Shown: positions 2 through 22,638 of the stretch, one piece after another | Position numbering within the stretch: the first letter of the stretch is position 1 | How the letters are laid out: every line of letters starts with the position of its first letter | IMG/VR virus record: IMGVR_UViG_3300021408_000002 | Coordinates: 6,249 to 70,248 of that record | DNA length: 64,000 nucleotides | From: a virus | Taxonomy: Duplodnaviria; Caudoviricetes | Strand: one strand, 5' to 3' | Notes under the pieces: model-generated | Told to the model about the DNA's origin: nothing | The model's database searches: none | The model's input: the letters and a program-made list of their open reading frames with translations, nothing else | Position numbers and translations under genes: made by a program

Positions 2-583
2 ATCACGAACGACGAATTCGACATCGACACCATCGCTGCGGCACTCACCAAAGACGGCGACAGGTACGACGTGCTCGACGCCGACGAGGGCTACACCTTC
101 CGGCTCCGCATCGAAGGCGACGATCTGTCTGTCGAGGATCTCGAAGACCCCGAAGTGTTCGGTCGCTGGGCGACCGCATGGGACGGTTATCGGAAGTACG
201 ACCGGCCTACCGGGTTCACCGGTGCCGCCGTCAAGTTCTGGTCCGAATCATGCCAAGGCGTCCAGTACTGGTACGAACCCCCGGAGAGCTTCCGCAAATT
301 CAAGGGCTCTGGGTTCGACACGCTCGACGAGTGGGAAGCGGCGAAGGACAGCAACCTCCAGTACGTCCGCGGGTTGATCTCGTGGGGCTACGTCCAGATC
401 GGTGTCGTCCTCACCCATGAACGAGCCGACGGCTACACACGGGAATGGTCGGCGTGGATCGCCGGCGTCGAGAATTCGCTCGCCAACCCTGTTCGACAGG
501 ACTGGGACAACTACGTCGCTTCGATCGTCAAGGACCAGATCGCCGAAGTCATCGGTGAAGCCATGGAAGGAAAACCGGAATGA
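2..583 (+). CDS. Hypothetical protein, 5' end probably outside the window
   Basis: Frame is open from nt 2 (ITNDEFDIDT...) into the 71..583 ORF; acidic, GC3-rich codons. Confidence 0.6.
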   Translation: MTNDEFDIDTIAAALTKDGDRYDVLDADEGYTFRLRIEGDDLSVEDLEDPEVFGRWATAWDGYRKYDRPTGFTGAAVKFWSESCQGVQYWYEPPESFRKFKGSGFDTLDEWEAAKDSNLQYVRGLISWGYVQIGVVLTHERADGYTREWSAWIAGVENSLANPVRQDWDNYVASIVKDQIAEVIGEAMEGKPE

Positions 584-659
584 GACGTATCACGACCGGC
601 TCTGCCGACTCCCCAACTCCTGTCGGGCAGTCGGCGGCTGCCCGACACGGGGGCTCGAC

Positions 660-848
660 ATGAACGCCGCAGAGATGCGCGCGCTCGCCCACATCACGGC
701 CGACCGCGCTAGCGCCTGGACGAACGACGCCGACCGATTGGAATCGTCGGTCGACAAGCTGGCTTACGCCACCTGCGCGCTGGCCGCAATCCAGATCGCC
801 AACTACTGGCGGGAGTCCGCCAACGACATCGAACGGAGCTACGAATGA
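660..848 (+). CDS. Small hypothetical protein
   Basis: ATG at 660; ATGA overlap with next gene. Confidence 0.55.
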   Translation: MNAAEMRALAHITADRASAWTNDADRLESSVDKLAYATCALAAIQIANYWRESANDIERSYE

Positions 849-1027
849 AGATCAAGGCACGCATCACCGCCCGCGCCCCGAAACCGCAGGAATCGGTGGA
901 GCGGCTGCAAGCCCAGTTCGCCGACTGGCCCGACTATGTCGCGGTCGGCAACATCACGCTCGTCTCGAAATACTCGAACGGGCTGCACTGGGTTGCCGCC
1001 GTCACCATGGAGAAGGAGCTGACATGA
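845..1027 (+). CDS. Small hypothetical protein
   Basis: Overlap-coupled; ends just after the AGGAG RBS of the next gene. Confidence 0.6.
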   Translation: MKIKARITARAPKPQESVERLQAQFADWPDYVAVGNITLVSKYSNGLHWVAAVTMEKELT

Positions 1028-1191
1028 GCTGGTTCCGGGTGTCGTTCTCGCAGACCGAGTACCGCTCGGCGCTCGTCGAGGCTCCTTCATCTGAGGCTGC
1101 TGTCGAGATGGTGCGCGAAGGTGACTACGACGACAGCAGTTTCGACATGGCCGAGGGATTCACCTTGGTCGCCGTAGAGGAGGATGGATGA
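1024..1191 (+). CDS. Small hypothetical protein (55 aa, MSWFRVSF...), not in ORF track
   Basis: AGGAG RBS, ATG 1024, ATGA overlaps at both ends. Confidence 0.6.
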   Translation: MSWFRVSFSQTEYRSALVEAPSSEAAVEMVREGDYDDSSFDMAEGFTLVAVEEDG

Positions 1192-1382
1192 ACGGTCCGA
1201 TCGAAGCGTTCCTGGAGAACGCCCGCGCCTGGCGCGCGCTCTACCTCGCGGCAATCGAACCATACCTCGACGAAGAAGGCGACATCGCGGACTACTCGAA
1301 GTACGACGAGGCGACGACCGATTTCGCCTACGACGCACGAGATCTCGTGCTCGCCCTACTCGACGCATTGGAGGCGCCATGA
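1188..1382 (+). CDS. Small hypothetical protein
   Basis: GAGGAGG RBS, ATGA overlaps. Confidence 0.6.
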   Translation: MNGPIEAFLENARAWRALYLAAIEPYLDEEGDIADYSKYDEATTDFAYDARDLVLALLDALEAP

Positions 1383-1576
1383 CCAAGAAGAAGCCGACCA
1401 CCAAGAAGACCGCGAAGAAGTCGTATGAGACGGACCGCGGTATCCGGGTCTGCCGCGACGAGGACTGTCCGGAGTGCGGGTGGGCTGAGACGTACGCCGA
1501 GATCGACATTTCGCACGGTTCGCCGTGTGTGCTCGCCCTCGGATGCAGCAAGTGTGGCTGGAAGGTGGAGGTGTGA
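1379..1576 (+). CDS. Small Zn-ribbon-like protein
   Basis: GGAGG RBS; CPEC...CSKC. Confidence 0.6.
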   Translation: MTKKKPTTKKTAKKSYETDRGIRVCRDEDCPECGWAETYAEIDISHGSPCVLALGCSKCGWKVEV

Positions 1577-1809
1577 ACATCGTCCTGCACGACGCCGGGG
1601 AGGTCCGCGATCTGATCGGTCTGTACGTCGGCTGGATCGTCGGCATCACCGCCTTCGACTGGGAGCCAATTCAGGTTCGGATCTCCGGCCACTTCGTCGG
1701 CGACGACACGTTTGTCTGGCTCGACGGCTTCGAAGTCACCGACGACGGTGACGAAATCCGCCCGTTCTCGATCTCCACCGAAGACATCCAAACGATCGAG
1801 GTGTACTAG
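1573..1809 (+). CDS. Small hypothetical protein
   Basis: GGAGGT RBS, GTGA overlap. Confidence 0.6.
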   Translation: MNIVLHDAGEVRDLIGLYVGWIVGITAFDWEPIQVRISGHFVGDDTFVWLDGFEVTDDGDEIRPFSISTEDIQTIEVY

Positions 1810-1811
1810 CG

Positions 1812-2018
1812 ATGGCCCGGAACGAAGACGACGCCTTCCAAGACGAGCAAGATGCGATCGGCGACATGCTCGACGACCGCGACGGTGATCACGACGGGTT
1901 CGGCTCCCATTGGGATGACCGGATCTCGGCGATCGAAGGCTACTGCGACTACTGCGAGCGCGAGGGCCACACGTTCCGGTCATGCCCTCGACGAGACGAT
2001 CACCAGGACCAGTCGTGA
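1812..2018 (+). CDS. Acidic protein with a CCHC zinc knuckle
   Basis: CDYCEREGHTFRSC = C-x2-C-x4-H-x4-C. Confidence 0.65.
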   Translation: MARNEDDAFQDEQDAIGDMLDDRDGDHDGFGSHWDDRISAIEGYCDYCEREGHTFRSCPRRDDHQDQS

Positions 2019-2188
2019 GCTTCGTCGTCCGCTGTTCTGATGGTGCGCAACGTCACCGCGATCCGTTTCCGACTCGCCGACTGGCCGACGAGTTCTCATG
2101 GTGGGGTCACTGCTGCACCAGCGAACACGAAATCATCTCCCTGGAGACTCCATGCCCGCACCCCACGATCTTGACCCCGGCGCCATGA
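2015..2188 (+). CDS. Small hypothetical protein
   Basis: GTGA overlap; H/C residues. Confidence 0.45.
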   Translation: MSFVVRCSDGAQRHRDPFPTRRLADEFSWWGHCCTSEHEIISLETPCPHPTILTPAP

Positions 2189-2787
2189 CCGAAGCCGAAC
2201 GACTCGCGAAACGCCGCTACCAAGCGCACCATGCCTTCGAGATGGACTTTCGGCACCATCCGCCTGGATCGATCGTGCAGCGTGTCCGCGACGTCCTGCA
2301 TTATGACCCCGCTACAGGTATCTTCGTCTGGCGCGTGACGCTGTCAAACCGTGCTCCTGCTGGCGCTGTCGCCGGCTCGGAAAGGAAGGACGGGTACCGC
2401 CTGATCGCAATCGACGGCCAGAGATACCTGGCGCATCGCCTGGCCTGGTTGTATGTGCATGGTGTCTGGCCGACCATGGATCTGGATCACGTCGACCGCC
2501 ATCCAGCCAATAATCGCCTCACCAACCTACGGCAGGCGACGCGCAGTGGGAACCAGCAGAACATGCGTCTTTCGCAGCGCAGCAGCGTTGGTCTGGCTGG
2601 CGTCTCGCGGAATGGCCGTCGATGGCAGGCAGCCATTCAGCTTTCCGGTCGCCAACACCACCTCGGCACCTTCGACGCACCCGAGGAAGCCCACGCGGTC
2701 TATCTCGCAGCGAAGCGCGAGCTACACCCATTCCACGCGTTCGAGATGATGCCGGACCCGCCCGACCAAGACAAGGAAACCGAATGA
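2152..2787 (+). CDS. HNH endonuclease with AP2-like C-terminal domain
   Basis: YDPATGIFVW; LAHRLAWLY; DLDHVDRHPANNRLTNLR; HLGTFDAPEEAHAVY; GGAG RBS. Confidence 0.9.
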   Translation: MPAPHDLDPGAMTEAERLAKRRYQAHHAFEMDFRHHPPGSIVQRVRDVLHYDPATGIFVWRVTLSNRAPAGAVAGSERKDGYRLIAIDGQRYLAHRLAWLYVHGVWPTMDLDHVDRHPANNRLTNLRQATRSGNQQNMRLSQRSSVGLAGVSRNGRRWQAAIQLSGRQHHLGTFDAPEEAHAVYLAAKRELHPFHAFEMMPDPPDQDKETE

Positions 2788-3083
2788 GTCGCGCTGATCA
2801 TCCCTCCCTCGCCCAGAACGCCATGACCAGCTACACAATCAGGTTCGAAGGCGACGACATGGTGGCCTTCCTCCAGGCGGGCGCGAACTTCATCGAGTTG
2901 TACCGCGTGCCTCATGCCTGTGCAGACGGAGACTCGGAGATGTGCCTCGAGCAGCTCGAGCGTTGTCGCTTGGTTGCCGAGGACGACGCCGGTGGTTCGC
3001 TGCCGTGGATCGTGTCGCAGGACCCGGAGAATGATCCACGACTTTCCTGGACGGGACCCATTGTCGCATCTCGCCTGACATGA
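2784..3083 (+). CDS. Hypothetical protein
   Basis: AAGGA RBS, ATGA overlap. Confidence 0.55.
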   Translation: MSRADHPSLAQNAMTSYTIRFEGDDMVAFLQAGANFIELYRVPHACADGDSEMCLEQLERCRLVAEDDAGGSLPWIVSQDPENDPRLSWTGPIVASRLT

Positions 3084-3098
3084 TAGGATCATGAGATG
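3084..3098 (+). promoter_or_regulatory. Extended -10 box (TGA-TAGGAT) 6 nt before an ATG; likely leaderless promoter
   Basis: TAGGAT-catgag-ATG. Confidence 0.55.
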
Positions 3099-3248
3099 TC
3101 TTTGAACCTGCTGGCGTCAGGCGACGAATATGAGTTCGCAATCAGCGAGACCCAATGGGATGTCGAACGAGCCGTAGACCGACTCGCCGCGGCATACCCA
3201 ACCTATTTCCCCGAGAGGAACCCCCCATGTCCAAATCCATCCGAGTGA
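3096..3248 (+). CDS. Small leaderless ORF (50 aa, MSLNLLASG...)
   Basis: Start is 6 nt after a TANNNT box; overlaps next gene start. Confidence 0.45.
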   Translation: MSLNLLASGDEYEFAISETQWDVERAVDRLAAAYPTYFPERNPPCPNPSE

Positions 3249-4174
3249 TCGCCGCGGTCGCGTTAGCTGCCGGCGCGCTCACCATCGGCGTCGTCCAAGG
3301 CAACCCGGTCAGCGCTCACGCCAATTCGGTCGCGTGTGTCGACCAGGCCACCTCCACGTGGCGGATCACGAATGACTTCCCGCTCAGCGAGACGTTCACG
3401 ACGGCTCAAGGTCCATCAGGCGCGGTCGCTGCCGGCAACGGTAGCTTCACCGACATCGTCCACAACGGCGACACCCTTACCGTCACTGGTACGTGGACCG
3501 ACGGTCACGTCGAGGTCAACACCGGGACAGGCGACTGCTCGCCAGATGTGGTCGAAACGACTGACCCGCCCGTCGAGACAACCGAGCCTCCGGTGGAGAC
3601 CACCGAACCTCCCGTTGAGACGACTGACCCGCCCGTCGAAACCACGGAACCTCCGGTGGAGACAACCGAGCCGCCCGTCGAGTCCACAGAACCCCCAGTG
3701 GAGACGACCATTCCGATCGACGCCAGTTTCGACATCGACGTCGAAGGCACCTGTTCGAACACGTTGACCGTCACCATCGGCGGCGGACCTGCTGACCTGT
3801 ACGCCTACGTCGTCGTCAACGGCACCCCGATCGAAGGCCCGCTCGGCACCTACGCCGAAGGCATCCACCAGACCAACGGATCCCTCGATCAGGACGTGAC
3901 GATCGTCTTGACGATCACCGCGACGTTCGAAGACGGCACCGTGCTTTCTGACACCGTCACCGTCGTCGCCAACTGTGCGCCGCCGGAAACCACCGATCCG
4001 CCGGTTACTACGGAGGTGCCGCCATCAACGACCAGCCCAAGTACATCAACCTCGACGACTACGGTCTCGGTGTCCCCCTCAACGCCGGTGACACCATCGC
4101 CGACTACCGAGGTCACGAGTACATCCTCGTTGCCGCCAGTCGTCCTGGCCCAGACATTGCCGGCGACACGCTGA
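3227..4174 (+). CDS. Secreted/surface protein with Pro/Thr-rich repeats, ending in LPAT(R)
   Basis: Signal peptide MSKSIRVIAAVALAAGALTIG...AHA; 7x ETTEPPV; S/T-rich stalk; C-terminal TLPATR. Confidence 0.8.
   Translation: MSKSIRVIAAVALAAGALTIGVVQGNPVSAHANSVACVDQATSTWRITNDFPLSETFTTAQGPSGAVAAGNGSFTDIVHNGDTLTVTGTWTDGHVEVNTGTGDCSPDVVETTDPPVETTEPPVETTEPPVETTDPPVETTEPPVETTEPPVESTEPPVETTIPIDASFDIDVEGTCSNTLTVTIGGGPADLYAYVVVNGTPIEGPLGTYAEGIHQTNGSLDQDVTIVLTITATFEDGTVLSDTVTVVANCAPPETTDPPVTTEVPPSTTSPSTSTSTTTVSVSPSTPVTPSPTTEVTSTSSLPPVVLAQTLPATR
3551..3697 (+). repeat. 7 x 21-bp tandem repeat (V-E-T/S-T-E/D-P-P)
   Basis: Synonymously diverged copies read directly from the sequence. Confidence 0.9.
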
Positions 4175-5975: not shown

Positions 5976-6289
5976 AACCTTCTCGCCTGATCTCGCAGAA
6001 GGAGTATCGCGAGCGGGTCCACGTCCGCATCGAAGCCGGTGAGGTCCCGCTCACCGACGAGCACCGTCGGGCTGCTGTTGTGATCGGCTCGACGAAATGG
6101 GCGAGCGTCCGCGATGTCGCCAAAGAGCTGAACATCTCGATCTCGAAGGCGTGGCTCCTCATCTTGAGCTTGAAGGCCCACGGCATCGTCCGTACCGTTC
6201 CTCGTGACGTGAACGCTCTGGTCCTCGCTCCCGACATCTCGATCATCGCCGGCGATATCTGCCGTGCCATCCCTTTGGAGAATTCATGA
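5972..6289 (+). CDS. Winged-helix HTH protein
   Basis: SVRDVAKELNISISKAWLLILSLKAHGIV. Confidence 0.65.
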   Translation: MKPSRLISQKEYRERVHVRIEAGEVPLTDEHRRAAVVIGSTKWASVRDVAKELNISISKAWLLILSLKAHGIVRTVPRDVNALVLAPDISIIAGDICRAIPLENS

Positions 6290-13282: not shown

Positions 13283-13851
13283 TCATTTCGCTCAGTTACC
13301 AGCAGTTGAATTCCTGCCGCCACTGGGGAACAGCGCGGCACAAGCAGCACCTCGTCGCCAACCGTGAGCGCACCACTCAGGGCCATGCCTGCGCGATGCC
13401 TGCGATCGCGTGGCGCACCTTGGCCGACCGGTTGACGAAGGAAGTGTTCTATGCGTCGACGGGGCGGCACCGCAAGACCCGTCTCGAGCGCGATGGGGTG
13501 CCGGCGACTCGAGCTGCGTTGCAGAAGATCGAGCAGGCGCTCGCCAATATGCAGATGCATCCGGCGTTGCACAACCAGAAGGTCGTCGGCTACTCCGGTG
13601 ACGTCGTGATCGCCTGGCCGCTGCCTGACGGTAAATGGTCGCTGTATCCGGTCCAGGATCAGGCCCCGGTGTTCTTCGTGCCCGTCGTCGACGACAAGTT
13701 CAAGTCGCTCGGCGTCACGACCTCGTGGCGCCCGCAGGCCGACTGTCCGGCCGACCTGCCCGACCTGTTCCCTGATCTAGTGGATCACGTCGGCTGGCTC
13801 GTCGGCGGACATGACGTCGTTGGAGTCGCCGAGGACCACCGAGGCACGTGA
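13279..13851 (+). CDS. Hypothetical protein, convergent with TerL (75-nt overlap)
   Basis: GTGA overlap; last gene of + operon. Confidence 0.6.
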   Translation: MIISLSYQQLNSCRHWGTARHKQHLVANRERTTQGHACAMPAIAWRTLADRLTKEVFYASTGRHRKTRLERDGVPATRAALQKIEQALANMQMHPALHNQKVVGYSGDVVIAWPLPDGKWSLYPVQDQAPVFFVPVVDDKFKSLGVTTSWRPQADCPADLPDLFPDLVDHVGWLVGGHDVVGVAEDHRGT

Positions 13852-16238
13852 CCCGCGGCCTCGCAGGTGGAGGTCGGGGATCAACATTTCGACGACGTTC
13901 GAGTCGAGCATGTCGTTGATGGCGTGCGCGACGACGTCGCAGTTGTGGACCAGGATTCCATTGGCGAAGTAGGTGCCATCCTCAGTCGTCAGGTTGTACA
14001 CCGCGACGTCGTCGCTTACCCCGCATCGCTTTGCCGTGCGCTCGGTGCCATTCCATTCCTTCGGGTGAGCGATGCCACGCGGAAGCAAGCGGTCGGATGC
14101 GGTCAAGAAGGGCCAACTGTTGTGGGCTTCGCGCTCGTAGGCTACGGCTCGCTGAGTGTTCTCGTTCGTGATCACGGCGGGGGAGAGCCTCCAGGTTGGA
14201 GGGGTTGTTGTTGGTAAAGTCGCCGTCAATGTGGTGGACCGCCCATCCTTCCGGGATTGGCCCGTTGATTGACTTCCACACCTCTTGATGTAGCGCCTGA
14301 ACACCTCGCTTGATGTGTTGGCCGCCGGGTTTGTAGTAGTGGCGATGTGCGGGTGTGCTCGAGTTTGGATATCGACGGAACTCGATTCCCGCGAAGACGA
14401 CCGTGTCGACCTCGACGGAGCCTCGCTCGGTCGAGAGGGTGACCAAGGGGTCGCCGTGGCGGCGCATTCGGGCCATGTGCTTGTGGCAAAGACCTCGGCC
14501 GCCCTTGGCGAGGGCCGTGCAATCTTCGATTGAGCAAGGAAGCGTCTTTCGGTTGACCATATGGACACGATATCATCATGCCGACCAAGGTCGCCGAGAT
14601 TCACCCACCCGGACATCGCCCACACGGGATGGTTCCTCGTCCCTACCAGGTCGCCCACCCCGACGACGTCGGCCACCCCGGTGCATCCCGCCCACAGAAC
14701 CCGGGTCCAACCCGAAGCACCCAACACGAATTGCCCGGACCGGACCTGATCCAGGCGGACCTCGCCGGTCGGTGTCGTTACAGCCGTCTCTCCGACTAAA
14801 CATTGGTCGTCGTACCGTCCCTTGCGACCGTCGCCCATCATCTTGCGGTGCTCGTCGATGAACGGCGCAACCCAATCCGGCGACTTGCCATCCTTGCCGC
14901 GGGGCAGCTTCACTCGACCCTGCTGCATCAGTGTCGAGTACGGCCGGGCCCGCTCCTCCTTCGAGCCTTCGGCGCGCGCCATGGTGACGGTGTAGTTCTT
15001 CAGTTCTCTTTTGTAGAACGCAATCACAGCCAGCCCGTCGCCATTCCTGGATCCTTCGATGAGTACGGGAACGGACACTCCGTCGGTGAACGCAGTCACC
15101 TTGACTTCGTCCATCACTTCGTTCGCACCCTTCTGGAATCGGGTGATGTCCTGCACATAGAAGACGTCGTCGACGTCTTTCGTGACGAGCCCACCGACGC
15201 TGTAGTCACCCCCCCCTTCCGAGGCTGCAAGATCCCAGGCTCGCCGGCGGGACTGCATCCACGGTTTGTCGTCCGGGTCGTACCACGCCCACTTATCCGG
15301 GGGGAACATGCCGCCCGTCGGCGAGGTCGGTTCCTGTTCGTACACGACGGAGAAGATGAACGGAACGGTCGTGCGCTTGCGCCGGTAGAAGAACGAGTCG
15401 TGCCAGCGCTCCGGGTCTTCCTCTTCGCCTGGCTTCGAGAACCGTGTCTTCAGGGGCTCGCCTCGTTTCCGGCCGAGGAGGTCGCGCCACTCCGGGTCAT
15501 CCGGGTTCTCTTCGTCGAAGTCGGGTTCGGCGATCGCCTTGAACACGAGGGATTCCCAGCGGTCTCCGTCGTACTCAGGGTCCTTCGCCTGCGCGTCGAT
15601 GCGGCCGGACATGTCGTCGTCCGCGAAGCGGGTGGCCCCGAGGAGCATCGTGCCGCCGGGTTGCAGGCGAGGGAGGATGGCACCGTGAAACTCTGCCCAG
15701 TGCGTTTCCTTCGTCTTCGTTGAGCCGGCTTCCTCCATGCCCTTGATCAGGTCGCCGAGTACGACCAAATCTCCTGGCATACCTGAAATTCGCGAGCCGA
15801 TCCCGACGGACAGCATTCCGCCTTGGTGGCCGGCGAGACGCCATTCCTGTTTCGATTCGTAGTTGGCGTCAACGGTCTGGCCGAAGAACTCGGGCCCCCA
15901 CTTCATGAAGATGTCCCGCACGAGCGCGCCGGATCGGATCGCGAGGTCGTCGGAGTAGGCGATCAGGATGACTCTGGTATCAGGCCAATGGCCGAGCACC
16001 CAGAGAGGAGTGAACAGCTCGACCAGGCTGCTTTTCCCGACTGTGGAGGAGCGTTGATCTTCAGGAACCGCTGGTTCTCTCGGTCACTGATCGCGTCCAT
16101 GATCCGGCCTTCACACATCCGCAGCCACGGATCGGCCTGATATGTCGACCGCGGCCCGTAGAGGTGGGGCGCCAGTGTTTGCGCGAGACGGAGTGGCGAG
16201 CCGACCTTGCGGAGATGTTCGAGATCGGGGTTAATCAT
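13777..16238 (-). CDS. terL: Terminase large subunit, interrupted by a -1 frameshift (16032-16038) and an intein (13942-14802)
   Basis: Walker A APPQSGK|SS after shift; VILIAYSDDLA; LVVLGDLIK (Walker B); nuclease AWDLA...GDYS and YDDQ|CD. Confidence 0.9.
13982..14560 (-). CDS. HNH endonuclease nested out of frame inside the TerL intein
   Basis: Zn finger CSIEDC...GLCHKH...RHGDP; HQEVWKSINGPIPEGWAVHHIDGDFTNNNPSNLEAL; own TATCGT-N6-ATG. Confidence 0.9.
   Translation of the reverse strand: MVNRKTLPCSIEDCTALAKGGRGLCHKHMARMRRHGDPLVTLSTERGSVEVDTVVFAGIEFRRYPNSSTPAHRHYYKPGGQHIKRGVQALHQEVWKSINGPIPEGWAVHHIDGDFTNNNPSNLEALPRRDHEREHSASRSLRARSPQQLALLDRIRPLASAWHRSPEGMEWHRAHGKAMRGKRRRRGVQPDD
14561..14572 (-). 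promoter_or_regulatory. Candidate leaderless promoter for the nested HNH
   Basis: Minus strand TATCGT-gtccat-ATG; same spacing as about ten other genes here. Confidence 0.55.
16032..16038 (-). other. -1 slippery heptamer G GGA AAA in TerL Walker A
   Basis: tcG GGA AAA gc; -1 frame continues SSLVELFTPLWVLGHWPD into the 740-aa ORF. Confidence 0.6.
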
Positions 16239-18150: not shown

Positions 18151-18356
18151 AGCTCTTCGATCCACCGCCGGACCGGAACGAGTACCGGGTTTGGAATGAG
18201 ACTGCGACGCGCCCACTCACCGACGGAGCGTTTGGGTCGGCTTCGGCTTCGCGCCGGAAGCGTTGCGCCGAACTGAGTGCCCGGATGACCGGCTGTGAAC
18301 GTCCACGTCGGCGGCTGATCAAGTCGCCGTGGACCGGACGCACCTACCTGGTTTAG
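18147..18356 (+). CDS. Small basic hypothetical protein
   Basis: GTGA overlap; convergent overlap with 18353. Confidence 0.45.
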   Translation: MKLFDPPPDRNEYRVWNETATRPLTDGAFGSASASRRKRCAELSARMTGCERPRRRLIKSPWTGRTYLV

Positions 18357-19618
18357 GCACCGAGGAGCTGCACGACGCGCTCCTCGCAAAGACTGCGCGC
18401 ATTCACGAGGCGGCCGACCTTCACCCCGTGCTCCTTCGCGTAGATCTTGGCGTCACGGGCGCCGGAGCGGAGGAACACCTTCTCGTGTTCGGTGCCACGC
18501 CCGACGATGTAGAAGTGGGTGCCCTGGAAGATGCCGCTGTAAGCGGCACAGTTATGTACGATGATCCCTTGTGAGACGTACCAGTGCGTCTTCGTATGGA
18601 GGTTGTAGACATGGCACGAGACCGAATCGCACTGGATGTCGATGATCTCATCGAGCGCTACGAGGCTGGAGATTCCCTTGTTTCCATCGGTGCCCGCCAT
18701 GGCGTCAGCAAGACGGTCGTCACTCAACGTTTGCGCCGCGCTGGCGTCTTGAAATCCGAAGGCCGTCGCTGCCCCCCCATCGACATGGCCGCGGCGGCGG
18801 CGCTTTACCTGGCGGGTGATGGGCTGAAACCTCTCGCCCGTTCTTTCGGCGTTAACCCTCGCACACTCCAGCGACGTCTGATCCAACTTGATATCCCCAT
18901 TCGGGGACGGTCGGAGACCCAGTTGATCCGAGCGTCGCGCATGACTAGCGACCAGCGGCGAAACCAGACTATGGCTGCCCACGCCGCAGTTCGCGGGCGG
19001 ATCGTCCCAGACCGGGAAGTGATAGCGCGAGCTGTTGACCGCGAACACACGCTCTCGATGCGCCGTATAGGAGAAGCCGAATTCCAAGCCCTGCTCGTGG
19101 CTCGCGGCATTGAGGTCGCGCCCCAGAAGGCCGTCTGGCGATACAACCTCGATCTCGCTGTGGCTCCCGTCGCCGTGGAAATCCATCGCAGTACTAGTCA
19201 CCCGATGAGGTTCACTGAACTCCGCAAGCGAGTCGAAGATCTCGCTGATCGGGGATGGATGACGCTCTGGATTTGGCTGAACAAGCGAAAGCCTGTCGAG
19301 TATGCCGACCTCGCCGTCGATAAGGCGATCGCCCACATCAACACAGCCCAGCGAGACCCAACCACGGTTCGTGAGTACAGGGTGATTCGGAGTAGCGGTG
19401 AGGACGCGCCTTGACCTCAGGGTGATCTGAACCATGTCGCCGTCATACCGGCGGCGAGTTGCCTGTTGGATGCCTGGGGCCACCACGAGCGCATCGCCAG
19501 GAAGACATTCGTACGGGTCGTCGCCGAGGAGCACCATCGACCGGTCGTTGCGGGTCAGGTCTTCGAACTGGGCGTTCAACTTCGCCAGAGCACCACGCTT
19601 ATTACAACCGCAGCCCAT
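18353..19618 (-). CDS. Intein-containing precursor; spliced product is a 102-aa unknown protein (MGCGCNK...)
   Basis: GAGGAG RBS, ATG 19618; 37-aa N-extein, 65-aa C-extein. Confidence 0.8.
   Translation of the reverse strand: MGCGCNKRGALAKLNAQFEDLTRNDRSMVLLGDDPYECLPGDALVVAPGIQQATRRRYDGDMVQITLRSRRVLTATPNHPVLTNRGWVSLGCVDVGDRLIDGEVGILDRLSLVQPNPERHPSPISEIFDSLAEFSEPHRVTSTAMDFHGDGSHSEIEVVSPDGLLGRDLNAASHEQGLEFGFSYTAHRERVFAVNSSRYHFPVWDDPPANCGVGSHSLVSPLVASHARRSDQLGLRPSPNGDIKLDQTSLECARVNAERTGERFQPITRQVKRRRRGHVDGGAATAFGFQDASAAQTLSDDRLADAMAGTDGNKGISSLVALDEIIDIQCDSVSCHVYNLHTKTHWYVSQGIIVHNCAAYSGIFQGTHFYIVGRGTEHEKVFLRSGARDAKIYAKEHGVKVGRLVNARSLCEERVVQLLGA
18551..19507 (-). mobile_element. Class-1 intein (319 aa); no in-frame endonuclease
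   Basis: Block A CLPGDALV; block B TATPNHPVLTNRGW; block F/G VYNLHTKTHWYVSQGIIVHN followed by Cys +1. Confidence 0.9.
18611..19414 (+). CDS. Antisense nested gene: tandem HTH + DUF559/Vsr-like PD-(D/E)xK endonuclease
   Basis: GGAGGT RBS 7 nt upstream; two HTH repeats; E...QKAVWRYNLDLAVAPVAVEIH...H...LADRGWMTLWIW. Confidence 0.82.
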   Translation: MARDRIALDVDDLIERYEAGDSLVSIGARHGVSKTVVTQRLRRAGVLKSEGRRCPPIDMAAAAALYLAGDGLKPLARSFGVNPRTLQRRLIQLDIPIRGRSETQLIRASRMTSDQRRNQTMAAHAAVRGRIVPDREVIARAVDREHTLSMRRIGEAEFQALLVARGIEVAPQKAVWRYNLDLAVAPVAVEIHRSTSHPMRFTELRKRVEDLADRGWMTLWIWLNKRKPVEYADLAVDKAIAHINTAQRDPTTVREYRVIRSSGEDAP

Positions 19619-19632
19619 GTCATCTCCTCTGA

Positions 19633-19830
19633 TTACGCCGGCACGAGGCCATGGCATCGGATCTCGGCGATCGCACCGCGGAGTCCGTCCGTGACGGCGA
19701 GCGGGATGTCGCGTATATGCGCGGCATCGTGAAGCTGGTCCTCGATGACATGTGAGAGTAGTCGCTCTGCGAGCGCAAGGAGATCACTGAGTGTGTCAGC
19801 ATCGACCGCAACCAGACGAGGGCTCTCCAT
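19633..19830 (-). CDS. Small hypothetical protein
   Basis: TAACAT-N6-ATG. Confidence 0.55.
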   Translation of the reverse strand: MESPRLVAVDADTLSDLLALAERLLSHVIEDQLHDAAHIRDIPLAVTDGLRGAIAEIRCHGLVPA

Positions 19831-19852: not shown

Positions 19853-20539
19853 CTATTTATGCGCGAAGAACGAAGATCCGGAACGCTGCCACTTCCCGAA
19901 CTCGGTGTGGACGAGCGGGCCAGTGACAAATCGTTCACGCCATCGGGTCTCGCGGAGGGCGTAGTTGAATGCCGCCATGTCCGTCATATCGCCAGCGTCC
20001 ATCGGGTGGCTGATGAGGCGGGCGAGGAATTCGAGGACATCCGCCCGGCCGCCGCCGAGTAGGCCGGCGTTGAGGAGCACGCGATCAGGAAAGGTTTCGG
20101 CCATCGGTTTGATCGACGGATGGTTGTCGACGATCCACTTGTTCGAGATCGTGTCGTTCTCTGAGCCAACGTAGAGATGGTCGGCCTCCATCGTCGCCCA
20201 CGGCGGACGCAGCATGACGACGTCGGAGCCGTCAGTCATGAACACCTTGTCGATGTCCGGTCGGCTGTCGAGCCAGGCGCGCAGGTGAGCCCAACGGGCG
20301 AAGAACAGGTTGGTGTCGTCCGGTTCGACTTGGACGAACTCGACGGGGACTCGAGCCCACGCCTGGCCGAGACGCTGATGATGTAGCGATAGTTCGTCGT
20401 GGATCACGACTGCATGACTGCCGACCAGCGACTTCAACCATTTCTGGAGGATCGCGATGTCCGGCTTGTAGTTGTCGCAGCCCACGCACATGGGATTGGG
20501 GATCGAAGTAAGAAGACAGGTCATCACGACGTTCCTCAT
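19853..20539 (-). CDS. Glycosyltransferase-like (GT-A) protein
   Basis: ARWAHLRAWL...KVFMTDGSDVV...LNAGLLGG...DMAAFNY. Confidence 0.7.
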   Translation of the reverse strand: MRNVVMTCLLTSIPNPMCVGCDNYKPDIAILQKWLKSLVGSHAVVIHDELSLHHQRLGQAWARVPVEFVQVEPDDTNLFFARWAHLRAWLDSRPDIDKVFMTDGSDVVMLRPPWATMEADHLYVGSENDTISNKWIVDNHPSIKPMAETFPDRVLLNAGLLGGGRADVLEFLARLISHPMDAGDMTDMAAFNYALRETRWRERFVTGPLVHTEFGKWQRSGSSFFAHK

Positions 20540-21033
20540 CTACGTGCCCACGCCCGCACGTCTTCGCCGAGTTGGTCGACTTCCCACTCCGAGAAGCCAG
20601 CGGCTTGAAGGGCGTACTCCAGCTCGTCTGGCTGGACATTCTGGTACCAGCCGCCAGGGGTGAGTGGATCGTCGTGGTGGAGGCCGTGCACCTCGCGGCC
20701 GGGGCCGGCCATCGTCATGACGCACGTCCCGCCCGGCTTCAGCATCATGCAGATGTTGGCGATGATGGCCGCGTTCGAAGGTGTATGTTCTCCCACTTCC
20801 GCGTAGAGAACGAGGTCGACGAGTTCGGGTGGCTGCCAGGAGGCGCCGTCGGCGACGACATCTACGCCTAGCCCATCGGCCGCGTCGACGACAGTCCAGT
20901 CGGCGTTCCGGAAGACCCAGCGGGCGTGACCGTTCGTCTCGCGGCCGCCGATGTCGACGGCAGTGACTTCGGCTGTTTCGAGGCCAGTGATGGCGGCGAA
21001 GTCGGCTACAAATTTGAGAGCGGCGTCATGCAT
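20536..21033 (-). CDS. Class I SAM-dependent methyltransferase
   Basis: AVDIGGR...VDVVADG...DLVLYAEVGEH...MLKPGG. Confidence 0.8.
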   Translation of the reverse strand: MHDAALKFVADFAAITGLETAEVTAVDIGGRETNGHARWVFRNADWTVVDAADGLGVDVVADGASWQPPELVDLVLYAEVGEHTPSNAAIIANICMMLKPGGTCVMTMAGPGREVHGLHHDDPLTPGGWYQNVQPDELEYALQAAGFSEWEVDQLGEDVRAWARR

Positions 21034-21703
21034 CCTGGTTCTCCGGTTCTCGTTCGGCGATGATGGCCCGCATGGCTGCGGCGTTGTTGCGGGCGTTGTA
21101 GTAGCGCTGGCTGAGCGCCGAGTTCGGCTGCCACCTTTCGGAGCCGATGTCGCGGCAGGCGCCATCGTGATAGAGCGACAACGCCATTCCTTTGTGCCAG
21201 CGCGGTCGTCCAAGGATCGCTGTGGCCGCCGAGGTGAGGGCCCCGTCCTCGCCTCCGTAGCCGGTGAAGCGTTCGTCCTGGCCGCCGCATTCCCAGTAGG
21301 AGGCGGGTTTGATCGCGATCACCGACGAGTCATGTTGGAGGGCTGTGCGGGTCGGCCACTTACCGGCATGGTAGGCCGCTGTTTCTTCTTCGGTGAGGTA
21401 CAGCATGGTGTCGAGCCCGAAGTGCAGGAGTCCGTCGTCGAATGCTCCGAACACGGCGGCTGTCACCGCCTTCGAGTCGGGGATCGTGTCGGCGTCGTTC
21501 AGAACGACGACGTCAGCGCCATCGGCTTCGGCGACGCGGACGCAGGTATTGCGAGAACCAGCACGCGAGAACTCTTCGTGGCCGGAGTCCGCAGTCCCGA
21601 AGTACCAGTCGGGGAAGTTCTCGAGGTACCAGTCCCGGACTGTCTGGAACGCCGCCAGACGATCAGGGGTTGGCCGCCAGGGACACATCACGGCGACTCT
21701 CAT
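21026..21703 (-). CDS. GT-A glycosyltransferase (GT2/GT7-like)
   Basis: FSRAGSRN; VVLNDADT (DxD); GGQDERFTGYGGED. Confidence 0.85.
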   Translation of the reverse strand: MRVAVMCPWRPTPDRLAAFQTVRDWYLENFPDWYFGTADSGHEEFSRAGSRNTCVRVAEADGADVVVLNDADTIPDSKAVTAAVFGAFDDGLLHFGLDTMLYLTEEETAAYHAGKWPTRTALQHDSSVIAIKPASYWECGGQDERFTGYGGEDGALTSAATAILGRPRWHKGMALSLYHDGACRDIGSERWQPNSALSQRYYNARNNAAAMRAIIAEREPENQDA

Positions 21704-22638
21704 CCAACGACCTCTTCTAGTTTTTTGATGAACCTCGTCAGCGAGTCGTCCTTGGCGAGCTGGTCGACCCGCTGCTTGCAGAGCTTCACCTGTCTCGCAT
21801 ACTTTCGGGGATCGTCGAGATCTTCGATAATGTCCAACCAGGCGTCGAGGTCATCGCGGTCGGCAAACAGTCCGGCCGGGCCGAGTGACTCCTTCAGTCC
21901 GGGAGTGGGGTGGGCGATCACGGGGACACTGCACATCGCCTCCACGCCGATCATGCCCCAGGTTTCATGGTCCGACGGCATGAGGAGGATGCGGGTCTTC
22001 GCCAAGATGTCGTCGCGGACGTTGCCGGTCGGCTTGATGATCGTGACGTTCTTGCGGGCCTGGCCTTCCGGCTGGGGTCCGTAGCCGCCTCGGACGCCGA
22101 GGAAGAGACGCTTCGGGAGGTAGCGGGCGAGGGCGTCGAACGTCAGGTAGCCCTTCGGTTCGATCAGGTTGACGAGCGTGATCGCGTCGCCTGGAGTCGT
22201 CGCAAATTTGGTGGGGTCGATGATGGGGTGGCACACCATGTGTTCGCCGGTGTAGCCGACGTATTCGGCGAGACTGTGCGAGTTGAACACGGTGAGGGTG
22301 GGTTCGCCGTGCTTCACAAGGTTGTGGAACAGGGTGTCGTGGGTGCCGTGGACGAAACGGACGGATGGCATGCGTTCCGTCATTGCGACACGATGGAGGC
22401 GGGCGTCGTCGCCGTGGATCGAGACGCAGACGTCGGTGCGGGCGAACCGGGGGCGCATGTTGGAACCGAGGTGTTCGACGTGGACGCCGTCGATGTCGTA
22501 GGACTTGATGCGGTCAGGGACTTGCACGATGACTTTGTGGCCGGCGGCGACGAGACCGGCGTAGTACTGATGCATCGCGATCCAGGAGCCAACGCGGGCG
22601 TACGGCGCGTAACCCAATTGGAAGCCTAAAATCCTCAC
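21700..22638 (-). CDS. GT-B glycosyltransferase (GT4-like)
   Basis: ILLMPSDHETWGMIGVEAM...VPVIAHPTPGLKESLG. Confidence 0.85.
   Translation of the reverse strand: MRILGFQLGYAPYARVGSWIAMHQYYAGLVAAGHKVIVQVPDRIKSYDIDGVHVEHLGSNMRPRFARTDVCVSIHGDDARLHRVAMTERMPSVRFVHGTHDTLFHNLVKHGEPTLTVFNSHSLAEYVGYTGEHMVCHPIIDPTKFATTPGDAITLVNLIEPKGYLTFDALARYLPKRLFLGVRGGYGPQPEGQARKNVTIIKPTGNVRDDILAKTRILLMPSDHETWGMIGVEAMCSVPVIAHPTPGLKESLGPAGLFADRDDLDAWLDIIEDLDDPRKYARQVKLCKQRVDQLAKDDSLTRFIKKLEEVVG

Follow-up and report, generated by a model that had tools for sequence, protein, structure and literature searches.

Inteins that carry a nuclease gene on the opposite strand have been described in actinobacteriophages. Gosselin, Arsenault, and Gogarten (bioRxiv 10.1101/2025.01.02.630785) report antisense VSR-like homing endonucleases in full inteins of MuF-like minor capsid proteins (the 'VSR -1 ORF', ORF being an open reading frame), and their supplementary table includes the phages Vivi2, Angelicage, Affeca, Fosterous, and Malisha. 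A related element is present in a 64,000-nucleotide stretch of viral DNA (Duplodnaviria; Caudoviricetes), here called the window, which spans positions 6,249 to 70,248 of the IMG/VR record IMGVR_UViG_3300021408_000002. The source record has 70,248 bp and is rated complete by CheckV, and the window covers most of it. The element comprises a class 1 intein (18551-19507, minus strand) and, on the plus strand, the gene of a putative homing endonuclease (18611-19414). It is very probably a mobile intein with its homing endonuclease encoded apart from it, codon against codon on the opposite strand, and with the expression signals of that nuclease gene inside intein blocks F and G.

VSR -1 ORF inteins: Like these inteins, the window intein is unsplit and has a Vsr-like ORF on the opposite strand in the same codon-aligned (-1) register. 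The structural matches of the nuclease, 1CW0 and 3R3P, are also the same. In contrast, the host of the window intein is a small orphan protein, and its C-extein begins with CAA and not with the MuF C(R/K)C. MuF is the usual context of the family and not a defining one. The window ORF overlaps both intein block B and the strands that precede block F, and its candidate signals lie in blocks F and G, which differs from the published account. The family of the window nuclease is by no means confined to actinophages, with members in phages of Haemophilus, Klebsiella, Vibrio, Pseudomonas, Salmonella, and Escherichia. The main text of the preprint does not contain the words promoter, Shine-Dalgarno, ribosome binding, or start codon, and a literature search for antisense or opposite-strand nucleases in inteins found nothing beyond this preprint. 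The architecture was already published in 2025. What appears to be new is a host gene other than MuF and the presence of the signals inside the intein motifs.

Other related systems: The 'fractured genes' of Dassa et al. 2009, as far as they are described in the preprint that cites them, are split inteins with a free-standing Vsr-like gene between the halves, and occur mainly in phages. They share with the window a Vsr-type homing nuclease gene between the splicing subdomains of an intein. In the fractured genes as cited there, the intein is split into two genes, whereas the intein frame of the window is open and encodes a single polypeptide, and the nuclease is antisense. I-Bth0305I (PDB 3R3P; PMC3239194) is the EDxHD prototype. 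It is encoded by a group I intron, binds DNA through its N-terminal region, and has a Vsr-like fold at the C-terminus. The window nuclease resembles it in its multidomain layout and Vsr-like catalytic fold (Z 10.8). In contrast, the window strand reads PVAVE(I/V) as in DUF559, the EDxHD motif is not seen in the alignment, and there is no match at the profile level. Antisense LAGLIDADG inteins are attributed in the same preprint to Gorbalenya 1998 and Gogarten et al. 2002. One of them, in the Gordonia phage Nordenberg (L093), has a LAGLIDADG ORF at 1202-2281, antisense to a MuF gene at 218-3325. It is similar to the window in being a codon-aligned nuclease gene that runs across block B, but it belongs to an unrelated nuclease family. 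Its start is 42 codons from the intein end, and a TACGAT 6 nucleotides before the ATG is like a leaderless actinobacterial promoter.

The intein and its antisense nuclease

Intein: The interrupted host ORF (18353-19657, minus strand) encodes 434 residues of a small orphan phage protein, and an alternative start at 19618 on the same strand would begin it with MGCGCNK. The exteins comprise about 50 N-terminal and about 65 C-terminal residues. The intein has 319 residues and begins with Cys1 in CLPGDAL. Its class 1 Hint motifs, all on the minus strand, are block B with the sequence TATPNHPVLT and the TPNH motif (19370-19399), block F with CHVYNLH and the VYNL motif (18596-18616), and block G with GIIVHN and the IIVHN motif (18551-18568). 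Block G ends in HN, and the C-extein CAA directly after it supplies the Cys+1 nucleophile. Pfam Intein_splicing (PF14890) matches the host ORF with 38 bits at a cut-off of 35.8. In the AlphaFold model of the intein, residues 1-67 and 280-319 form a beta-rich Hint domain with a pLDDT (predicted local distance difference test) score of 90-97. Residues 129-279, which are antisense to the nuclease core, have a pLDDT below 50 and almost no secondary structure, and a single low-confidence helix is present at 260-280. By its sequence motifs, Pfam score, and modelled Hint fold, 18551-19507 is a class 1 intein, and it is predicted to splice.

Antisense nuclease: The gene at 18611-19414 (plus strand) encodes 267 residues with two to three helix-turn-helix (HTH) motifs and a Vsr/DUF559-like nuclease domain at residues ~150-260. 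Its frame is open from 18575 to the stop codon at 19412-19414 and is codon-aligned (register 0) with the intein frame, which is also open. The in-frame start codons are GTG 18584, ATG 18596, and ATG 18611. The first two were rejected as nuclease starts because homologues begin at the position of 18611 and neither has a Shine-Dalgarno (SD) sequence upstream. The final 15 codons run over intein block B. A first, sequence-only reading of this DNA had placed the nuclease C-terminus over block B and parts of the gene over both Hint halves, and direct comparison of the frames agrees with it. In the dual-coding overlap (19370-19399, both strands), the block B sequence TATPNHPVLT on the minus strand is antisense of the nuclease tail REYRVIRSSG on the plus strand. 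The putative catalytic strand of the nuclease, PVAVEI (19166-19183, plus strand), reads DFHGDG as a pseudo-motif in the intein frame.

Homologues: A tblastn search with the nuclease matches 124 of 50,697 phage records. The hosts of the matched phages include Gordonia, Haemophilus/Aggregatibacter, Klebsiella, Vibrio, Pseudomonas, Salmonella, Escherichia, and Mycobacterium. All the matches listed lie under a head-morphogenesis, MuF-type, or other structural gene, under an unnamed ORF, or in an unannotated stretch. The match is antisense to a containing head-morphogenesis/MuF-type or unnamed gene in 10 of the 11 records inspected, the exception being the free-standing homologue of phage BUCT629. 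The window nuclease shares 37-39% identity over 97% of the query with Vivi2, Fosterous, Affeca, and Angelicage (E 8e-39 to 9e-36), and 31% over 90% with Malisha (E 5e-16). The protein database contains 44 nuclease homologues of 28-46% identity. A DNA-level search of the phage records with the whole element returns only a 53-nucleotide match, so that no close DNA relative is present there.

Fold: The alignment of 26 nuclease sequences has an invariant YN.D...E strand and a nearly invariant His. All are found in the window protein, where D181 and E190 are the invariant residues and H197 the nearly invariant one. The AlphaFold model built with this alignment has a pLDDT of 92.9. With VIA-align, the C-terminal domain (residues ~150-267) matches the catalytic domain of I-Bth0305I (3r3p, 91 of 97 residues, with the Z given above), Vsr (1cw0, Z 10.6 with 110 residues aligned; 1vsr, Z 9.6), and the DUF559-like protein 3hrl (Z 9.5). 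The N-terminal helices resemble double HTH DNA-binding domains of the paired-domain, Tc3, and Mos1 type with Z 5-7. Foldseek against the PDB gives weak E-values of 0.03-0.2, and the fold call rests on the second look with VIA-align. A profile search of the PDB finds 3hrl as the closest solved nuclease (E 7e-4) and does not list 3R3P at E up to 1, and Pfam MTES_1575 is weak at 19 bits with a cut-off of 38. The HTH-HTH-Vsr/DUF559-like arrangement that had been predicted from the sequence is present in the model, together with a PD-(D/E)xK-type fold. The homologues, the alignment, and the model give good support for a genuine, conserved gene on the plus strand whose product has a Vsr/DUF559-like fold. 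Its context suggests a role as a homing endonuclease.

Constraint on the two reading frames

Stop codons: The locus set consists of 80 IMG/VR loci gathered with the family alignment, 8 phage loci, and the window, 89 in all. All 89 have the codon-aligned antisense frame open over the entire nuclease match, as part of ORFs that are 300-1399 codons long, and the other two antisense registers are closed across the set. The number of stops to be expected was predicted for 54 loci from the extein codon usage of each. It comes to 239 in the intein frame, arising from the Leu/Ser codons of the nuclease, and to 299 in the nuclease frame, arising from the intein. The intein frame has none, and the nuclease frame has one, at the mis-anchored locus L084. 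Loci with a guanine-cytosine (GC) content of 36-55% have 2.5-25 expected stops each. Locus L059, in which the nuclease frame is broken, has 21 codons covered and adds close to nothing to these totals. In this locus (2393-2566, plus strand) the stop breaks the nuclease frame while the intein frame is open, and it looks like a copy decaying toward a mini-intein.

In the genes of the window phage itself, the aligned antisense register has 1.11 stops per 100 codons compared with 1.78 and 3.51 in the other two registers. This bears out the earlier suggestion that stops are rarest in the aligned antiparallel register. Only about three stops are therefore expected in 267 codons, and the open antisense frame of the window by itself is weakly significant against chance. 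Given the comparative data across the loci, a chance origin is untenable.

Segments: All-pairs comparison of amino-acid identity in the two frames divides the element into segments. The nuclease core is more conserved in the nuclease frame (0.32) than in the intein frame (0.225). The segment from block G to block F has an identity of 0.27 in the nuclease frame versus 0.50 in the intein frame, and the block B overlap 0.55 versus 0.70. The N-terminal Hint part is also lower in the nuclease frame and higher in the intein frame. The third codon positions give the same division. In the nuclease core the third position of the nuclease frame is the most variable, whichever frame is used to build the alignment, and in the three other segments it is that of the intein frame. 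A substitution test on close pairs has 6 usable pairs only, and the argument is carried by the all-pairs comparison. The two frames also cast mirror motifs on each other. The best-conserved nuclease motif, YRVIRG, is antisense of block B TPNHPVLT, and the intein sequence DFHGDG is antisense of PVAVEV. Selection on both frames, with the nuclease dominant in the core and the intein at both ends, is well supported by these sequence comparisons.

Candidate expression signals in blocks F and G

Window: An SD-like GGAGGT (18598-18603, plus strand) is antisense of the block F bases AAC CTC C, which encode Asn, Leu, and the first base of His. The 7-nucleotide spacer TGTAGAC separates it from the ATG (18611-18613, plus strand). 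A candidate -10 box, TACGAT (18557-18562, plus strand), is antisense of the Ile-Val codons of block G, inside ATC ATC GTA CAT AAC (IIVHN). The sequence-only reading had given all of these positions correctly. It had also proposed the string ATG GAG GTT GTA GAC (18596-18610, plus strand), which reads GTC TAC AAC CTC CAT (VYNLH) in the intein on the minus strand, as the source of GGAGGT. GGAGGT is indeed antisense of VYNLH codons, but the ATG inside the string (18596) is not the start. The start ATG is itself antisense of the CAT His codon directly before VYNL, a point absent from that reading.

Start and SD in the family: Signals were counted in 71 non-identical loci, with blocks F and G as anchors. 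In 67 of the 71, the terminal Asn follows the block F Val at a spacing of exactly 19 codons. In 52 loci the nuclease start (38 ATG, 14 GTG) falls on the antisense of the codon that directly precedes VYNL; it lies 1-4 codons further in 15 and is missing in only 4. No amino acid other than His has two codons that each give a start codon (ATG or GTG) on the antisense strand. An SD-like core is found upstream of the start in 56 of 67 loci, most often at 8 nucleotides. Block F encodes its Leu with CTC in 43 of 55 loci compared with 14.5 expected from extein usage (z 9.3), and the Asn codon preceding this Leu is AAC in 34 of 43. Nearby synonymous sites are randomised, with Gly encoded by GGG, GGA, GGT, and GGC 12, 12, 12, and 10 times, and the four Thr codons ACN used 14, 13, 12, and 8 times. 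This stretch is non-coding for the nuclease, and the bias must therefore come from a nucleic-acid signal. The SD-like GGAGG as antisense of the block F Asn-Leu-(Gln/His) codons, first noticed in the window, is kept family-wide by biased synonymous codon choice. The pattern persists in 59 clusters below 70% identity. The assignment of the SD and the start codon in block F as nuclease signals is well supported by these counts.

Loci L015 and L020 have an Asp or Tyr codon before VYNL, which leaves no ATG, GTG, or TTG at the usual start. Such members could rely on a non-canonical codon or on a start at another position, or they may be inactive.

The -10 element in the family: On its antisense strand, block G has the hexamer TANNNT in 50 of 71 loci compared with 5.3 expected from the same-strand background, and the extended form TGnTANNNT in 28 of 71. 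Among these hexamers, TATAAT (14) and TACAAT (9) are seen most, mainly at a single offset. Three codons ahead of the terminal Asn, block G uses NTA in 32 of 50 loci, about five times the 6.7 expected. The -10 box that had been read in block G of the window thus has counterparts that recur in the family, but TACGAT itself is weak. It is the weakest of the three signals; the comparisons support a -10 element for the family and only weakly for the window. An extended -10 promoter needs no -35 element. Such -35 independence would suit an element whose upstream flank changes with each host gene.

Control inteins: Scanning with a degenerate pattern of the NGI.VHNC peptide of block G yields 80 viral loci, one of them in the nuclease family. 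After near-identical and truncated copies are dropped, 74 diverse control inteins outside the family are left. Codon choice at block F differs between inteins with and without the antisense ORF, as the Leu is CTC in 5 of 36 controls versus the 43 of 55 family loci. The residue before block F is His in 6 of 73 controls and in 45 of 57 family loci, and TGnTANNNT occurs in 2 of 74 controls. The bare TANNNT is present in 42 of 74 controls, and at a GC content of at least 0.55 it is found in 1 of 8 controls and in 36 of 52 family loci. The aligned antisense frame in controls is open for a median of 15 codons. The rarity of the signals in controls therefore indicates that the SD and the start codon are adaptations of one family and not ready-made features of inteins, and that the bare -10-like hexamer comes free only in adenine-thymine-rich (AT-rich) DNA. 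As AT-rich controls also carry TANNNT, it is the TG extension and the GC-rich loci that provide the evidence for the -10 element.

Proposed mechanism: The host protein would be translated through the whole element, and the two intein ends would fold as a Hint splicing domain. The ~150-200 residues between them would be a meaningless antisense reading of the nuclease and form a disordered loop. The intein would then splice out of the host protein. The HTH-HTH-Vsr-like nuclease would be made from its own antisense message, with the antisense of the His before VYNL as its start, the antisense of the block F Asn-Leu-(Gln/His) as its ribosome binding site, and the antisense of the block G Ile/Val codons as its likely -10 element. 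The expression cassette would lie inside the last 21 intein codons and travel with the intein when the nuclease cuts an intein-free allele in co-infection. From the sequences we infer that the element is transcribed and translated, cleaves DNA, splices, and homes. The stronger proposal is that the nuclease wrote the whole cassette (a -35-free extended -10, the SD, and the start codon) into the last 21 intein codons and made it portable to new genes. This proposal is favoured with some reserve.

Points against and alternatives: Several observations weigh against the mobile intein with embedded signals. In the window, TACGAT has no TG extension and is 3 nucleotides (one codon) off the commonest position in the family, with an offset of 6 compared with the top offset of 9. 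Scanning 18200-19800 for sigma-70 promoters and terminators gave neither a full -35/-10 promoter nor any other hit. Below 55% GC, TANNNT is about equally common in controls (41 of 66) and in the family (14 of 19). The loci are not phylogenetically independent, although the 59 clusters mentioned above remain. The retrieval pattern of the IMG/VR loci is the antisense of block B, which biases the set toward intein-embedded copies; the whole-protein tblastn of phage records is free of this bias. The window signal, the promoter scan, and the AT-rich controls would fit a real nuclease gene whose transcription signals lie elsewhere, in the antisense of the C-extein or next gene or in antisense read-through, so that only the SD and ATG function and the TACGAT of block G is a by-product of its codons. 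We regard this as unlikely. TGnTANNNT is far more frequent in the family than in controls, TANNNT at high GC is also more frequent there, NTA codons exceed their expectation, and a mobile element benefits from a promoter within its own borders.

A further alternative is the earlier proposal that the conserved motifs in blocks F and G give any intein a ready-made antisense promoter and SD, and that this explains repeated independent captures. It draws on the TANNNT that AT-rich block G often yields for free, and on the presence of two or more unrelated nuclease types (Vsr-like and LAGLIDADG) antisense in inteins, both in the aligned register (bioRxiv 10.1101/2025.01.02.630785). The controls do not bear it out, as most lack the Leu CTC, the His, and TGnTANNNT, and the Nordenberg gene starts outside block F with a TACGAT of its own. 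The anchored Vsr-type loci have the same register in all and the same junction in nearly all members, as a single origin predicts. This shared register and junction suggests a single capture of the Vsr-type antisense nuclease followed by spread, and leaves repeated capture through ready-made signals quite improbable. Least probable is that the plus-strand ORF of the window is a silent relic or a shadow ORF driven by GC, with the intein effectively a mini-intein with a long linker. The few stops expected at 61% GC, the decay seen in L059, and the lack of a close relative of the window copy (the best among the IMG/VR loci is 38% identical) are in line with it. Against it, the ORF is full length, keeps its D181, E190, and H197, is modelled with high confidence, and retains the ATG, the GGAGG, and the 7-nucleotide spacing. 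A mobile intein with a functional opposite-strand nuclease gene is the preferred reading.

Host genes, neighbours, and implications

Host genes: The MuF C(R/K)C site holds 44 of the 71 loci. Many of the remaining loci have variant C.C sites that are still MuF-like, or ambiguous contexts, and the window, L009, and L050 have clearly non-MuF host genes. A Pfam search with both exteins of the window host ORF matched no family, including MuF, and no C-extein homologue or intein-free allele of the host gene was found when these were sought.

BUCT629: In this Acinetobacter phage (L092), an intein-free MuF-like gene stops shortly behind its CKC motif, and the free-standing nuclease homologue is convergent with it. 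The two genes, at 1225-2160 (plus strand) and 2154-2930 (minus strand), have a 3' overlap of 7 nucleotides, and the antisense frame of the nuclease homologue is closed. This arrangement is plausibly the ancestral state, or possibly a case of collaborative homing.

Neighbouring genes: The intein-bearing gene is positioned upstream of the large terminase (TerL) gene (13777-15999, minus strand), which carries a second intein at 13942-14802 with the sequence CLVGETAV...ILVHN followed by C. An HNH-like ORF of 192 residues (13982-14560) is on the same strand as TerL in a different frame, and the middle of the TerL intein is low-complexity sequence in the TerL frame. The HNH ORF may match an out-of-frame nuclease type of bioRxiv 10.1101/2025.01.02.630785. 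A single-protein search of viral contigs for relatives of the TerL intein found none. A methyltransferase-like ORF (20536-21213, minus strand) and a group 1 glycosyltransferase-like ORF (21700-22638, minus strand) are upstream of the intein-bearing gene.

Annotation: Gene callers report one strand only, and the nuclease is absent from most phage records. In a prophage of the Streptomyces phaeochromogenes chromosome (L213), the nuclease (3001-4011, plus strand) is annotated as a hypothetical protein. There is no minus-strand call between the portal and scaffold genes, and the intein-bearing head gene has apparently been dropped.

Implications: Each of the two overlapping genes rules a different segment and casts a false conserved motif on the other, which shows how constraint can be split between them. 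A profile search that starts from one of the two proteins will also register the constraint of the other frame. The embedded signals give a testable account of how a gene nested antisense in a protein-splicing element is expressed. If the cassette is real, it fixes synonymous codons of the intein (Leu CTC, Asn AAC, Ile/Val NTA) and imposes a His on it. Its portability would explain how the family reached phages of several bacterial phyla and came to sit in genes other than MuF, the window host gene among them, and a portable extended -10, SD, and ATG would be a small example of the autonomy of mobile elements.

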